Notes: generated by a model from the sequence alone, not told the origin. Shown: positions 3,729 through 11,657, counted from the stretch's first letter. The stretch is DNA of 64,000 bases from Akkermansia sp. (GCA_051884295.1 JBJEVK010000048.1:3820-67819); one strand, 5' to 3'. Program-made: numbers and translations.

Positions 3729-6700
3729 ATGAAGATCAAACACCGTCTTTGCCTCCCCGGGGCGCGTTTCGCCCGTCGCCGTGGTTTTGCGCTCATCGCC
3801 ACGCTGACGCTCATGATGCTGCTCGCCATGATTGCCACCGCCCTGATGGCGACCGCCGCTTCGCAGAACCGCATTGCCATGCAGTCAGTGCTGCAGGCCG
3901 AGGCGCGCCAGCAGGCACTCATCGGCTTGGACGCCGCCATCGGTGAGCTGCAGGCGCAGCTGGGTGCCGATCAGCGCGTGACGGCGAGCAGCGGTGTGAC
4001 CTCGGAGAATGAAAACGGCACGCCTCAGCATCTTCTGGGGGTTTGGGACAGCTGGGACGGTCCCATCTACGGCTCCGGGCGCACGGGCAAGTCCAAAGGC
4101 AAGATTCAGGATACCTACACGCAGGGGCGCGCCTCCCGGTTCCGCAAGTGGCTCATTTCGAGCCGCAGCGCGCGCGATACCCGCGATTTTAAGGCGGCCA
4201 AGAGCCTGTGCTCCCGTCGCCCCGGGCAGCGCATCTGCATGGTGGGGGCGGGGACGCTCGGGCGCAGCCTCGACAACACGCACTGGGTGTATGCTGATCT
4301 GCTGAGCATGCCCTCCACGGGCAAGAATCAGGCATGCTTTGCGTGGTGGGTCGGCGGTGAGAACCAGAAGGCCAAGATCTCGGTGGAGGATCCCGAGGAG
4401 AGCAAGGATCCCATCGAGCTGCTGCACCGGACATGGAACACCCCGGCGCCGATGGTGGTGGATAATCGCGACCTGGACTTTGTGCCCTCGCGCGTGGAGA
4501 ATGCGGCCAAACTGACCACGCTCAACAGTCTGCCCTTGCTCGACAGCTCTTCCCAGCCGGCGGGGACGCCCTATTTCTTCGATGTGACGACCTCGTCCTA
4601 CAGCTTGCCCGTCAATGTGAGCATGGGCGGGCTGAAGCAGGATCTGTGCCTGCTGCTCAACAAAGAGACGCTCAAGGGGACGGAGTTCGCCGCGCGCTCC
4701 GATCAGGATTGCCCGCTGGTTGAGGGTAGCGATGTGCCCGTCGGCACGGAGTCTAACATGCCCATCGGCTCGTGGCAGACGCTCTACGCCTACTACAATT
4801 GCTGGCCGAATGGCGATGCCGACACGGAGGACTTCACGGCGCGACTGCCGGGCAGTCTGAAAAATCCCTACACGCGCATGAGCGGTGCGGCCTACACGCA
4901 GAATGGACTGGGCTACTTCCGCGATGCGAACGAGGCGGTTTCCGATGTGCCCAACAGCGTGTTTGATGCTCGTTCCATGATGGACAGCGGCAGCAAGAGT
5001 GCCGGCTATGCCCGTACACCCATTATGCTGGCCTACATGTGCAATTTGGGTCTGGATGTTGAAAGGGGTGACAAGAAAACGGATGATCAGGGTAATGAAA
5101 TTCCCACCTATTCGCTCAATTTCACCTTTGCACCCATGTTCCTGTACTGGAACCCCTACAATGTGCCGATGCGGGTCAAGTCCCGTCGTCTGTGGACCAA
5201 GACAACACCCTACAAGCTGCTGAATCTGGAGTTTAACAATCTGGTGACGAAGGACGGGCGCAGCAACTGGCAGAGCACCGGATGGAAGACGGGCAATCCG
5301 GCTCGCAAGAATGTCGGCAGCTACACGAAGGATAGGCTCTATGCCGACTATGGTCAGTGTCTGCAGAACTCGCTGAACGACAATTCGGATATTGTGTTCC
5401 GTCCCGGTGAGGTGTTGTTCTTCTCGCTGGCTTCGGGGAAGGGGTCGTCCGAGGCGTGGAGAACGCCGCTGGTGCTGCAATTCTGGCCGGATGTCGTCAG
5501 CTCTTACAAGGCGCGCATGTACTCGAATTGCAGCGAGTACATGACGAACGAGGCCTACTTCGATGTCAATCTGGGCGCCGACGAATACATCACCGACGGT
5601 TACTACTTCTCGCGCGGCCATGCGGAGTGCATCACCATTCAGCATGGCTTTGGCGGGCGCCGCGATAATCCTGAGTCCGACAACAACTGGGTTGATCAAT
5701 CGAAATTCTTTGCCATCCAGTCCCCCCAGCGTCATATTCTCAACTGGTTTGCCCCCGGGGAACTGGCTCCGGAGCAGCGTCTGATTTGCTCGAGTCAGTT
5801 GAATGACTCGGTGTGGGACACGAGCATGGTCGAGGATGACCAGCCCTATTTCGTGTGCGCCGTCGGTGTGGTGGCCAAGAGCGCCAACACGCGGGTGGAG
5901 GAGTATCTCTACGGTGACAGCGATTATCGCGGCAAGTTGTGGCAGCATGCCACCCCGGCCACATGGGGCGGTGCGTTGCTGGCTCCGACGGATCAGGAGC
6001 GCCAGTACCACCCCTACCAGTTGGCAACGCTCAAAATCAGCGGTGGTCTGGCAACGGCGCCGATGGACAACATCGGCAACAACGGCTACCTCGGCATTAC
6101 AAGCGATGGCGAGCAGGTCTCCTTTGCCTCGGTTTCCGAGCTGCCGGTGCATCCCCCCTTCTCGCTGGCGGGCCTGGCCGGCATGCGCCTGACGCCCGGT
6201 TGGTATGCTCCCTCCTGGAACGGAGATATCGGATCCTCGGTTGTCGGGGCGATGCGCCGCTCTGCCTACATCGGCGGTGTGCCCGGCGTGGGTATCGGCA
6301 ACGCCTTTGCGGATCCGACCATCCCTGCGGATGGGGTGTATGCCTTCCACCGCACGCAGACCTCGCAGGGGCTCAACGATATGAACGGGGGTGCCTCGGT
6401 GCCGTCGAACAAGCAGATCTACGGCGATTACTTTGACCACGGACTGCTCATCAACGATGCGATGTGGGACCGCTGGTTCATGTCCTCGGTTTCCGACATG
6501 CCGACGGGGGACAATATCCGCAAGGCACAGGAGGTGCTCAGCGACTTCCTCAGCGGCAAGGAGGCGCTGCCCGTGGCGCGCTACAAGAAGTGCGCCACCC
6601 CCTACAACGATGAGCAGGTCATTAGTCGTCTGATGGAGGGTGACGGCTGGAAGTACATTGCGCAGTACCTCATGATTGACGGCGGCTTCAACGTGAACTC

Positions 6701-10700: not shown

Positions 10701-11657
10701 AGCGGCAAGGAGCAGCTGCCCGTGGCGCGCTACAAGAAGAGCGCTACCCCCTACAACGATGCGCAGGTCATCAGTCGCCTGATGGAGGGTGACGGCTGGA
10801 AGTACATTGCGCAGTACCTCATGATTGACGGCGGTTTCAACGTGAACTCCACCTCGGTGGAGGCGTGGACGGCGGTCTTGCAGGGGCTTGCCCGCCGCAA
10901 ACTTGTCACGGGTGACGGCAATCGACTCTCTCAGGTGGAGGGAGACAAGAGCGACAGTCAGGTGCTCTTCTCCCGTTTCATGCACTCCACGACCGACAAG
11001 AGCGTGGATTCGCTCGGCGGCTACAGCATGTTGCAGGGGTCGAGCCGCTTCCGCAACAGCGGCATGCTCAATGCCTGGGGTGAGGTGCGCATGCTCGAGC
11101 CGGAGTCCATCCGCCGTTTGGCTGAGGAGATGGTGAAGCAGGTGCGCAAGCGCGGTCCCTTCCTCTCCATGTCCGATTTCATCAACCGCCGCCTGACCAC
11201 GGGCGAGACGGGGCTCAAGGGTGCGCTGCAGGCCGCCATCGATGCTACGGACATCAACCGCGATTTCCAGGATGTCATCGTGCAGCCGCAAAACGGCGGG
11301 AATTTGTACGCCAACCCGGATGCAGAGCGGGGCTCTATGTACACGGCGGCACCCGGCTACCTGATTCAGAGCGATGTGCTCATGTCGCTGGGCAATATCC
11401 TGACCGTGCGCGATGACACCTTCACTGTGCGTGCCTACGGTTGCGTCAAGAGTGCCTCCAATGCTATTTTGGCGCAGGCTTGGTGCGAGGCTGTGGTGCA
11501 GCGCACGATGAACTACGTGGATCCGACGAACGATCCTTCCGATGCGGAGTACAATCCCGATGGCACGAAGGGCAAGGGGCTCACCAAGCTGAACCGCGTG
11601 CTGGGCCGCCGCTTCCAGGTCGTTTCCTTCAAGTGGCTGGATGTGTGGGATATCTGA
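7797..11657 (+). CDS. Large PilX/GspK-type pilin-like protein (Verru_Chthon cassette protein A-like), copy 2
   Basis: Same leader and C-terminal motifs as copy 1; near-identical ends and a divergent centre. Confidence 0.75.
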   Translation: MKIQQRLCLPGARFARRRGFALIATLTLMMLLAMIATALMATAASQNRIAMQTVLQAEARQQALIGLDAAIGELQAQLGADQRVTASSGVTSENESGTPQHLLGVWDSWDGPIYGTGRTGKSKSKIQDTYTQGRASRFRKWLISSRSARDTRDFKAAKSLCSRRPGQRICMVGAGTLGRSLDNTHWVYADLLSMPSTGKNQACFAWWVGGENQKAKLSVEDPEETTDPIEMLHRTWNTPAPMVVDNRDLDFVPSRVEHAAKLTTLNSLPLLDSSSQPAGTPYFFDVTTASYSLPVNVSMGGLKQDLCLLLNKETLKGTEFAARSNQDCPLVEGGDVPVGTESNMPIGSWQTLYAYYNCWPNGDEGSNGFAARMQGNLSSAYTRMSGAGYTASMADLQSPVASSDERTFFDTRSLLDQGSSTAGYARTPVMLAFISNFALVSERAPMLEDEEGKKTVRYNLGVGFAPMALMWNPYNVPMRVRGGQMWTHTRPYKTMWLQFNNFDAKNGRWDTLNGTQQWVADNFYEKGDWKNLPGGNLDGKGYGAGNARGFGAEYASPLYASRNNQSSDIVFQPGEVLFFCPDAGSDSQGNQSTSLVIGYDPTALCVPDLTKNAFHPNVPASEVDAGNIFLKLTLGINDGKEFKYPASQVNPTDLLDARFRMFGQLSCITVLNGVGGLQSLTLNKDLEKDSESQDGRHGIMPHSMMLGWYNTAEMTRDQLYVCDPSHNDSVWSTSQNDSSTPYFVTALGVVTKSANTNPDTRILPGGDYRGKLWQHSNPALSSSVSYNPSDQERQYLPYQLAVLPVSGGLGSSPIDNVGNNGYLGITSDGEQVSFASVLELPVHPPFSLAGLAGMRLTPGWYRSSESGTYAAVAAARRMQYQGGVPGVGIGNSFADPTIPAAEVYAYHQTNTAEFSSRIQGNQRLFGDFFDHGLLINDAMWDRWFMSSVSDMPTGKGVRKAQEVLSDFLSGKEQLPVARYKKSATPYNDAQVISRLMEGDGWKYIAQYLMIDGGFNVNSTSVEAWTAVLQGLARRKLVTGDGNRLSQVEGDKSDSQVLFSRFMHSTTDKSVDSLGGYSMLQGSSRFRNSGMLNAWGEVRMLEPESIRRLAEEMVKQVRKRGPFLSMSDFINRRLTTGETGLKGALQAAIDATDINRDFQDVIVQPQNGGNLYANPDAERGSMYTAAPGYLIQSDVLMSLGNILTVRDDTFTVRAYGCVKSASNAILAQAWCEAVVQRTMNYVDPTNDPSDAEYNPDGTKGKGLTKLNRVLGRRFQVVSFKWLDVWDI

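Follow-up and report, generated by a model that had tools for sequence, protein, structure and literature searches.

The locus considered here raises the question of why two giant genes lying one after the other share nearly the same beginning and end while their middles differ deeply, and of what kind of protein is built in this way. The window, which is the whole stretch of 64,000 nucleotides that was analysed, comes from an uncultured gut Akkermansia represented by a MAG of 116 contigs, and the tandem pair is known from this MAG contig. Copy 1 (P0001) is located at 3729-7508 on the + strand and encodes 1259 aa; copy 2 (P0002) is located at 7797-11657 on the same strand and encodes 1286 aa. 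Akkermansia is a leading next-generation probiotic candidate, and its largest pilin-like protein is annotated only as "hypothetical protein"; the literature search returned no paper tying Akkermansia to GspK, PilX, PilY1, a pseudopilin or a tip adhesin.

Both genes are complete and run in the same direction, and a separate terminator and promoter-like element precede each of them. The upstream neighbours are transporters of the SSF and SBF families, the latter at 2615-3601 on the + strand (SBF domain), and the downstream ones are a hexapeptide-repeat protein and an IdeS-like PEP-CTERM protein; the earlier remark that cassette B/C/D partner genes are missing from the immediate surroundings holds, and small pilin-like genes are absent there too. 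The DNA repeat extends past the ORFs by 192 bp upstream and 27 bp downstream: in blastn, 3537-4897 aligns with 7607-8965 at 91.4% identity, and the 3' end of the SBF gene (3537-3601, + strand) marks the left boundary of the duplicated unit. The 192-bp upstream repeat is made up of a 65-bp relic of this 3' end, a terminator and a promoter-like element. Before copy 1, a terminator-like hairpin (3606-3626) with a T-run is followed by a promoter-like element (together 3606-3671, + strand), whose hexamers TTGACA (3641-3646) and TAAATA (3666-3671) were read by eye on the + strand; the consensus promoter scan missed them because the last base of the -10 hexamer is A. The two repeat units are separated by a 71-bp junction (7536-7606) that is matched neither in the other unit nor in the single-copy strain, after which come the non-coding relic of the SBF gene duplicated with copy 2 (7607-7671, + strand, ~75% identical to 3537-3601), a second, duplicated terminator-like hairpin (7676-7696) and the promoter-like element before copy 2 (7676-7739 in all, + strand) with TTGACA at 7710-7715 and TAAATA at 7734-7739 (+ strand). 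A search upstream of both copies for an inverton or phase switch found the terminator hairpin only; around the copies there are no notable inverted repeats, and no site-specific recombinase lies beside them in the window.

Along their length the two proteins diverge in a markedly uneven way. The N block of copy 1 (aa 1-363, 3729-4817, + strand) is 96.1% identical to that of copy 2, and the C block (aa 926-1259, 6504-7508, + strand), which contains the FNVNSTS and RGPFLSMSDF motifs and the terminal beta-strands, is 94.0% identical over the last 334 aa; between them lies the centre, a beta-rich insert that in copy 1 covers aa 364-925 (4818-6503, + strand) and represents the type 1 module, and in copy 2 covers aa 364-952 (8886-10652, + strand) and represents an orphan module type. 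Identity falls to ~41% in the most diverged core (aa 364-770). The first-pass annotation had recognised the near-identical ends, had placed both ORFs correctly and had pointed out the anchors WNPYNVPMRV and DIVF(R/Q)PGEVLFF, which are found in both copies, but the diverged block is wider than it had drawn, from ~4818 to ~6500 in copy 1 and from ~8886 to ~10650 in copy 2. The 5' edge of the diverged block is sharp (4811-4819) and the 3' edge is gradual.

The same contrast appears at synonymous positions, where dS between the copies is 0.22 in the N block, 1.59 in the centre and 0.42 in the C block. At codons for identical residues, four-fold sites differ in 26 of 194 cases in the N block (13%), in 50 of 82 in the centre (61%) and in 44 of 164 in the C block (27%), with Fisher p = 4.6e-15 for N versus centre and p = 3.7e-7 for C versus centre; the contrast between N block and centre is far above chance, and a uniform divergence along the gene, which would have spoken against exchange, is not what is seen. 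Within the N block, an identical tract of 259 bp (4099-4357, + strand; partner in copy 2 at ~8167-8425), with a chance of ~1e-5 given the 5.8% mismatch rate of the block, is read as a recent gene-conversion tract. In this same block copy 1 shares 96.1% identity with copy 2 and only 93.4% with its own orthologue P0003 of a related strain, while in the centre and the C block it is nearer to P0003 than to copy 2, both in identity and at four-fold sites. The segment trees conflict accordingly: copy 1, copy 2 and P0003 form one group at 100 in the N segment; copy 1 joins P0003 at 95 and copy 2 follows at 99 in the C segment; in the centre segment copy 1, P0003 and then P0004 are grouped at 100 with copy 2 outside. 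Uneven constraint alone is rejected because synonymous divergence differs by block, the trees conflict and the 259-bp tract is identical; the segments are of different ages, and the genes have a mosaic structure with ongoing conversion.

The mosaic is also found in five other Akkermansia protein pairs and in the genome G007, in which the C-terminal dS is ~0 and the centre is saturated. The type 1 centre is shared with the related strain contig at 95% identity (P0003), and this contig has one copy only, followed directly by the downstream flank of copy 2; in contrast, the best match of the copy 2 centre among 5.8 billion proteins is 45% identical. Centres are not invariant across strains: in another Akkermansia lineage, P0017 and P0023 are alleles at one locus with flanks 91-100% identical and a centre 39-67% identical, and allelic centre replacement is thus shown elsewhere in the genus. 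Together with synonymous divergence, conflicting trees and the conversion tract, this swap bears out the earlier proposal that centres are exchanged by homologous recombination. The description of the centre as hypervariable has instead to be given up, since dN/dS within one centre type is 0.054 (copy 1 versus its orthologue P0003), which indicates discrete conserved modules rather than a hypervariable loop; the central modules fall into discrete types that separated long ago and are each held by strong purifying selection.

A simple tandem duplication without recombination, in which the copy 2 centre diverged fast under positive or relaxed selection and the ends were held by constraint, would agree with a centre that is the least conserved part in the column entropy of the whole family and with the long branch of the copy 2 centre, which has no close relative anywhere. 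However, where the residue is conserved, four-fold sites have reached saturation in the centre, as opposed to 13-27% divergence in the ends, and protein-level selection cannot cause saturated synonymous sites; moreover, N and C blocks differ in divergence and in nearest sequence, the long identical tract stands in one of them, and centres are swapped among alleles at a single-copy locus of another lineage. This account is very improbable and is already largely refuted by the synonymous-site data; no targeted-hypermutation machinery for the centre was seen. Slightly more remote still is the idea that the assembly joined the alleles of two strains, in each of which the gene is single-copy, into a tandem, for which the fragmented MAG and the single copy of a closely related strain could be cited. 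Against such an artefact, the junction, with its diverged SBF relic, its second terminator and promoter-like element and its unique joint, resembles a real old tandem duplication and not a co-assembly, and tandem pairs occupy the same pyrG-SSF-linked position in the genomes of two other species (G013 and G019).

As regards the nature of the protein, the family is restricted to Verrucomicrobiota, where it counts 3,477 clusters at 50% identity, and has no Pfam or NCBIfam model; its A. muciniphila homologues are annotated "hypothetical protein". In both copies a leader (aa 1-19 in copy 1) ends in RRRG, is followed by FALIATLTLMMLL and has Gly at -1, so that the predicted mature part begins with FALIA and continues in a hydrophobic alpha1N; position +5 is Ala and not Glu, as in leaders of the K type. 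The GspK model of NCBIfam matches the N-terminus only, at E 2.4e-5 with 24.0 and 17.1 bits, and neither copy reaches the curated cut-off of 130 bits (NF037980). The alignment of the family profile with a GspK profile of 40 sequences by hhalign has a probability of 91.4% and E 9e-7 over 65 columns of the N-terminal helix, in agreement with the Glu5-less, GspK-type start proposed beforehand; against the single E. coli GspK sequence the probability is just 21%, and the C-terminal profile aligns with GspK at the NVNT motif as expected, with a probability of 5%. The T2SSK Pfam domains (PF21687/PF03934) have no match in the copies, and searches of Pfam, NCBIfam and PDB sequence profiles give nothing past weak N-terminal PilX_N/GspK matches. 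The statistically supported homology to GspK, as judged from these profiles, is confined to the N-terminal helix. Elsewhere in the genome no canonical GspK domain was found; a weak PF03934 match was discarded, as it sits in a protein read from sequence as DNA polymerase III alpha subunit.

A structural model is in line with this picture. A first AlphaFold run on P0001 aa 60-1259 with an Akkermansia-only alignment gave a pLDDT of 65 and only porin noise in Foldseek; the better model, obtained with a deeper alignment and the full-length orthologue P0063, has a pLDDT of 87.4 and a pTM of 0.90. It shows a helix of 49 residues (2-50), N-proximal strands, a beta-rich middle and three long C-terminal strands, the N-proximal and the C-terminal strands being ~900 residues apart in the chain. 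In Foldseek against the PDB, GspK (3ci0_K) ranks 1 and XcpX (5vtm_X) ranks 3, with non-significant E values of 0.34-0.83. In the model the pilin-type helix and the terminal strands, as predicted, fall on the conserved ends, and the large beta-rich insert falls on the variable block; on the basis of this orthologue, the N block of copy 1 is predicted to fold into helix alpha1 plus the opening strands of a pilin-type module.

The gene content also speaks for a pilin. Two adjacent genes for type IVa pilus ATPases of the PilT/PilU family (18448-20007 and 20025-21119, + strand; TIGR01420 and T2SSE domains) lie 7 kb from the copies and score 424.9 and 426.5 bits with TIGR01420 (cut-off 319.1), whereas the ORF at 17684-18451 was set aside as a probable spurious frame. 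The genome also encodes a prepilin peptidase (Peptidase_A24) and has six further genes of the prepilin type, among them its only pilin-like cluster of three genes, which lies on another contig (C89). In related Verrucomicrobia a genome can hold up to 24 or more members of the family, and these are often accompanied, one by one, by a secreted partner of ~240 aa; this partner, which follows these genes in the sister Verrucomicrobiales family, was not found in the genome. In A. muciniphila, the pili-encoding MUL genes are needed for mucin uptake (PMC12418764, PMC13174399).

The explanation that we favour, with somewhat better than even confidence, is that the copies are K-type minor pilins, GspK/PilX-like and Glu5-less, which equip a retractile type IV pilus with alternative tip modules, and the two middles are probably, as far as can be read from sequence, alternative pilus tips. 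The N-terminal ~360 aa and the C-terminal ~330 aa would form a single carrier, in which the N part provides the prepilin leader, the alpha1 helix of ~50 residues and the first beta-strands, and the C part a helical sub-domain and the three long terminal strands. After cleavage by the prepilin peptidase, the carrier would join other minor pilins at the start of the filament and hence be placed at the tip, displaying the 500-600 residues between the ends as a beta-rich module; we infer the processing, the tip location and the role of the centre as a ligand-binding module. With tandem copies that each have a terminator and a promoter-like element, the genome retains two versions. Gene conversion between them and with the alleles of other strains holds the carrier ends nearly identical, so that both copies would fit the same partners, and the central modules are exchanged as blocks. 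The module would plausibly serve the pilus system that Akkermansia requires for mucin capture.

A bolder form of this idea, which we hold only tentatively, is that the retractile mucin-uptake pilus catches its substrate with the giant K-type pilins at its tip and that the centre is a new glycan- or mucin-binding fold, the ends being homogenised because every tip must suit one shared priming complex. If so, the discrete, recombining centre types would set which host mucins a strain catches, or its visibility to antibodies or phages, and the 24 or more copies of free-living Verrucomicrobia would amount to a library of pilus tips, each specific for a polysaccharide. It is somewhat less likely that the copies cap a type II secretion-like pseudopilus as K-type subunits, or that they are surface proteins held in the membrane by a pilin-like signal anchor; the centre would then not be an adhesin but would serve, for instance, in gating or in docking secreted glycan-degrading enzymes. 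The sole significant similarity is indeed to GspK, a T2SS component, the high copy number and the frequent secreted partner in relatives fit cargo or docking equally, and domain and fold searches of the centre gave no recognisable lectin or adhesin domain and no match indicating a function or a binding partner. On the other hand, the nearby ATPases are of the PilT/PilU retraction type, typical for type IVa pili, Akkermansia pilus genes are tied to mucin attachment and uptake (PMC13174399, PMC12418764), and discrete allelic types of a surface module maintained in populations typify binding or antigenic surfaces.

Should the copies be pilus tips, the block-exchangeable centre would be one of the factors that make strains differ in mucin or host specificity, in recognition by antibodies or in sensitivity to phages, and a family of thousands of members without a matching PDB fold would constitute a new class of binding modules on display. 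The modular evolution inside one gene, in which the carrier ends evolve in concert and old cargo modules are swapped blockwise, holds independently of this reading.

Among known systems, the closest likeness is with GspK, XcpX and PilX (3CI0 chain K, 5VTM chain X). As in the copies, their leader is basic and ends in Gly and their hydrophobic alpha1 lacks Glu5; the extra domain that the model suggests within the pilin module would also parallel GspK (PMC8179133), and the order of NVNT-like, RGPF and terminal-strand motifs is similar as judged by eye. However, the copies are ~4 times larger, their beta-rich insert of 500-900 residues has a fold without a match, and they do not lie beside GspH/I/J-type genes and exist as recombining paralogues and alleles. 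The Verru_Chthon cassette protein A (TIGR02600), against which a search had been recommended, is likewise confined to Verrucomicrobia, ~1,300 residues long and provided with a pilin-like N-terminal helix. The search came out empty for P0001 and P0002, which are not listed at E<=1, and for the genome, which has no match at E<=10; distant family members match profile positions 1-59 only, with 18-27 bits against a cut-off of 332.3 bits. Membership of the window proteins was rejected, there being no match beyond the helix and no B/C/D genes nearby; in place of these cassette partners, the usual neighbour in the sister Verrucomicrobiales family is the ~240-aa secreted protein. Pilus variation driven by recombination is exemplified by gene conversion between pilE and pilS in Neisseria and by the PilV shufflon of R64. 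As in these systems, a variable segment is exchanged here via conserved flanks and multiple variants occur per species or genome; unlike pilE/pilS-type systems and shufflons, two full-length genes are involved instead of an expression locus with silent partial cassettes, and no recombinase or inverted-repeat switch lies beside them in the window. Modular pilins are also known, including GspK and ComZ with domains inserted in the pilin sheet (PMC8179133), and in A. baumannii the ComC/FimU/PilV cassette was replaced at least 2 times (PMC10374093). Modular tip pilins such as PilB of S. sanguinis and ComZ of T. thermophilus (PMC8179133) combine, like the copies, a conserved carrier with a variable effector part, whereas in the genes described here the swapped block is located mid-gene.

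The two tandem genes on the forward strand are complete paralogues, copy 1 (P0001, 3729-7508, 1259 aa) and copy 2 (P0002, 7797-11657, 1286 aa), each a long ORF with its own terminator-like hairpin and promoter-like element. Their global protein alignment gives 96% identity over aa 1-363 (N block), about 41% with several indels over aa 364-770, intermediate values from there to about aa 925, and 94% in the C block (the last 334 residues), which bears out and sharpens the first-pass annotation of paralogues with conserved ends and diverged centres; both of its anchors, WNPYNVPMRV and DIVF(R/Q)PGEVLFF, are found in the alignment. 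The repeated DNA reaches past the ORFs (3537-4897 versus 7607-8965, 91.4% identical; 5920-7535 versus 10093-11683, 83.3%), and therefore copy 2 carried along what lies before copy 1: a relic (65 bp) of the 3' end of the SBF-transporter gene, the terminator-like hairpin of that gene (3606-3626, repeated at 7676-7696) and a promoter-like TTGACA…TAAATA element, read by eye. Since hairpin and promoter-like element are duplicated and a unique 71-bp joint (7536-7606) separates the repeat units, each copy looks like its own transcription unit. An invertible element was looked for at the tandem pair and none is present. The pyrG-SSF-linked giant pilin gene of two other Akkermansia species sits in a perfect, 100% complementary inverted repeat, with arms of 3,092 nt in A. 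muciniphila G117 (L053, 5376-8467 / 9679-12770) and 2,965 nt in G007 (L032, 5587-8551 / 9767-12731) around a spacer of ~1.2 kb with the promoter region and the initial ~315 codons. Since centre and C-terminus are the same in either arm, a flip of the spacer would give the same protein.

The source genome is a MAG (1.9 Mb, 116 contigs, about 90% complete), and co-assembly of two alleles into one apparent pair is made unlikely by the diverged SBF relic, the second hairpin and promoter-like element and the unique joint. Pure divergence after duplication is contradicted by the synonymous sites: Nei-Gojobori dS between the copies rises from 0.22 (N block) to 1.59 (centre) and falls back to 0.42 (C block), and the four-fold count, restricted to third positions of four-fold degenerate codons with the same residue in both copies, gives 26/194 (13%), 50/82 (61%) and 44/164 (27%), respectively (Fisher p 4.6e-15 for N versus centre and 3.7e-7 for C versus centre). 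The value of the centre equals the between-species level seen against G012, another genome (53-61%), and the 5' edge of the diverged block is abrupt (nt 4811-4819). The segments thus have different histories, beyond mere differences in constraint. The N block holds a stretch of 259 bp (4099-4357) without a single mismatch between the copies, which marks a recent conversion tract, because such a run has a chance of about 1e-5 at the 5.8% mismatch rate of the block. The centres have a lower GC3 (0.74 at 4818-6038 and 0.78 at 8886-10211) than the gene ends and the genes nearby (0.82-0.88), which is compatible with another origin of the centres or with GC-biased conversion in the ends.

The order of events can be approached through contig L022 of a related strain, with about 92% DNA identity to the window, where a single gene (product P0003) is preceded by pyrG-SSF-SBF, as in the window, and directly followed by the sequence found downstream of copy 2. 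The centre of P0003 is of the copy-1 type (95% identical) and its C block is copy-1-like (97.6%). The N block of copy 1 is more similar to that of copy 2 than to that of P0003, both in protein identity (96.1% versus 93.4%) and at four-fold sites (13% versus 23% divergence, Fisher p 0.02), whereas in the C block four-fold divergence is 27% between the copies and 14.5% between copy 1 and P0003 (Fisher p 0.006). Maximum-likelihood trees of the three segments conflict with strong support: the N tree unites copy 1, copy 2 and P0003 (support 100), the C tree joins copy 1 and P0003 (95) with copy 2 as their sister (99), and the centre tree groups copy 1 and P0003 with the homologue P0004 (100), leaving copy 2 outside on a long branch. 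No relative of the copy 2 centre above 45% identity was found among 5.8 billion proteins. In the simplest history, the tandem pair arose before the L022 strain branched off, or else an unsampled lineage was the source of copy 2; the two centres were already of different types by then, and the N block has been homogenised between the copies since.

The same pattern recurs throughout the genus, in which 24/24 species genomes searched hold 1-3 homologues. In G013 and G019, tandem pairs occupy the same pyrG-SSF-linked position, centres of one type are orthologues between species (80-92% identity, against about 40% for paralogous centres), and the gene ends group by lineage and not by centre type. 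In the complete genome G007, two dispersed copies differ at four-fold sites by 13% in the N blocks, 60% in the centres and 2.5% in the C-terminal 500 aa. A comparison of 121 Akkermansia proteins yielded six pairs in which identity is at least 93% at either end and does not exceed 65% in the centre. One of them, P0017/P0023, answers the first-pass proposal to compare central alleles across strains: these are alleles from different samples at one single-copy locus of another Akkermansia lineage (pheA … 1950-aa autotransporter; L048 8001-11729 versus L051 3159-6920), and in 150-bp windows flanks and gene ends are 91-100% identical and the centre 39-67%, a case of allelic block replacement between conserved flanks. 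Exchange of centres by homologous recombination is therefore supported by the synonymous-site data, the discordant trees, the conversion tract and this allelic swap; the ends are kept alike by gene conversion, and the centres, of discrete ancient types, are swapped as blocks. The description of the insert as hypervariable did not hold, since dN/dS of the centre between copy 1 and P0003 is 0.054, not higher than in the ends; with such strong conservation within one type, the centres are discrete, old and functional modules rather than a continuously variable loop.

The family is very large: a phmmer search of 1.84 billion representatives retrieved 3,477 clusters (E<=1e-3), 1,510 of them with E<=1e-30. 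It occurs in 29/101 sampled genomes of the phylum, and a single genome can hold 24 or more matches; family members are mostly of 1,100-1,380 aa, best conserved in the C-terminal 360-550 residues, and the A. muciniphila homologue is annotated as a hypothetical protein. Domain searches gave sub-threshold matches alone, a PilX_N hit in Pfam and GspK N-terminal hits in NCBIfam (E 2.4e-5, 24 bits versus a cut-off of 130), and a PDB sequence-profile search gave no match. Membership in TIGR02600 (Verru_Chthon cassette protein A) is rejected: the window proteins are unmatched, and in distant family members the contact is confined to the first 59 profile positions. The N-terminal helix is GspK-type; profiles of the family (62 sequences) and of GspK (40 sequences) align across 65 columns at the N-terminus (91.4% probability, E 9e-7), and at the C-terminus GspK 'INvNT' stands opposite the family's 'GGFNVNSTS' in a weak alignment (5% probability).

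An AlphaFold model, built on a diverse alignment, of the full-length orthologue P0063 (59% identical, starting 9 residues into the mature protein; pLDDT 87.4, pTM 0.90) predicts a 49-residue N-terminal helix followed by short strands, a large beta-rich middle that includes long hairpins, then a helical sub-domain around the RGPFLSMSDF motif and three long C-terminal strands. The conserved blocks of the window pair fall on the helix and terminal-strand parts, and the swapped block in the beta-rich middle. Foldseek gave no significant PDB match for any part of the model, its non-significant ranking having GspK first (3ci0_K, E 0.34, probability 0.41) and XcpX third (5vtm_X, E 0.83). On the search, profile and model results, the giant protein is filed as one that would work like a K-type (GspK/PilX-like) minor pilin bearing a very large inserted module, and not as a demonstrated GspK-family member.

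The genome encodes a Peptidase_A24 prepilin peptidase and six other prepilin-type proteins with canonical GFTLIE-like motifs, and no canonical GspK domain is detectable elsewhere in it. Three of these six are encoded side by side on the reverse strand of contig C89, outside the window (10949-10044, 10126-9284 and 9246-8260; 301, ~250 and 328 aa). At their N-termini they weakly resemble GspH/I/J and the Verru_Chthon cassette proteins D, C and B, and they are candidate partners of the giant pilins. Two adjacent genes for PilT/PilU-family type IVa pilus ATPases (18448-20007 and 20025-21119; TIGR01420, 425 and 427 bits) lie 7 kb downstream of the pair, the first having a ~165-residue N-terminal extension or a start codon called too early. 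The forward ORF before them (17684-18451, 255 aa, low-complexity and Arg/Gly/His/Glu-rich) found no match in the family search and is unlikely to be a gene; the true one may be ORF 17687-18490 on the opposite strand. Downstream of the pair are a gene for a 183-aa hexapeptide-repeat protein and, after it, one (12136-15159) for a protein of approximately 1,000 aa that combines a Mac-1/IdeS-like domain with a PEP-CTERM tail. Giant K-type pilin genes of a sister family of Verrucomicrobiales (L042-L046; G029, G035, G039) form arrays of 2-3, and behind nearly every one comes a gene for a signal-peptide protein of ~220-255 aa. These proteins make up one divergent family, and a search of the window's genome for such a partner found none.

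The ends would act as a pilin carrier; because this has to match a single assembly machine and a single set of partner minor pilins, selection and conversion would keep the ends uniform, while the centre would be a module displayed at the filament tip; two centres, or a swapped one, would alter the binding targets of the pilus or its binders. A role as secretion-pseudopilus cap or in cargo docking is a live alternative to display at a pilus tip. Reviews and a 2026 study report that mucin accumulation by A. muciniphila requires MUL genes encoding pili, and that the type IV-like pilus locus amuc_1099-1102, for which a role in attachment to fucose-rich glycans is proposed, is conserved across Akkermansiaceae (PMC12418764, PMC13174399); neither these sources nor the other literature searched mentions the giant pilin-like protein, and a mucin glycan as its ligand and the mucin-uptake pilus as its system are speculative. 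Modular or recombining tip pilins are an already known kind; what is new is the documentation in Akkermansia of concerted ends with swapped centres, and the link of such giant pilins to a pilus system that currently attracts interest. For insertions into the pilin sheet, GspK and ComZ are established precedents (PMC8179133).
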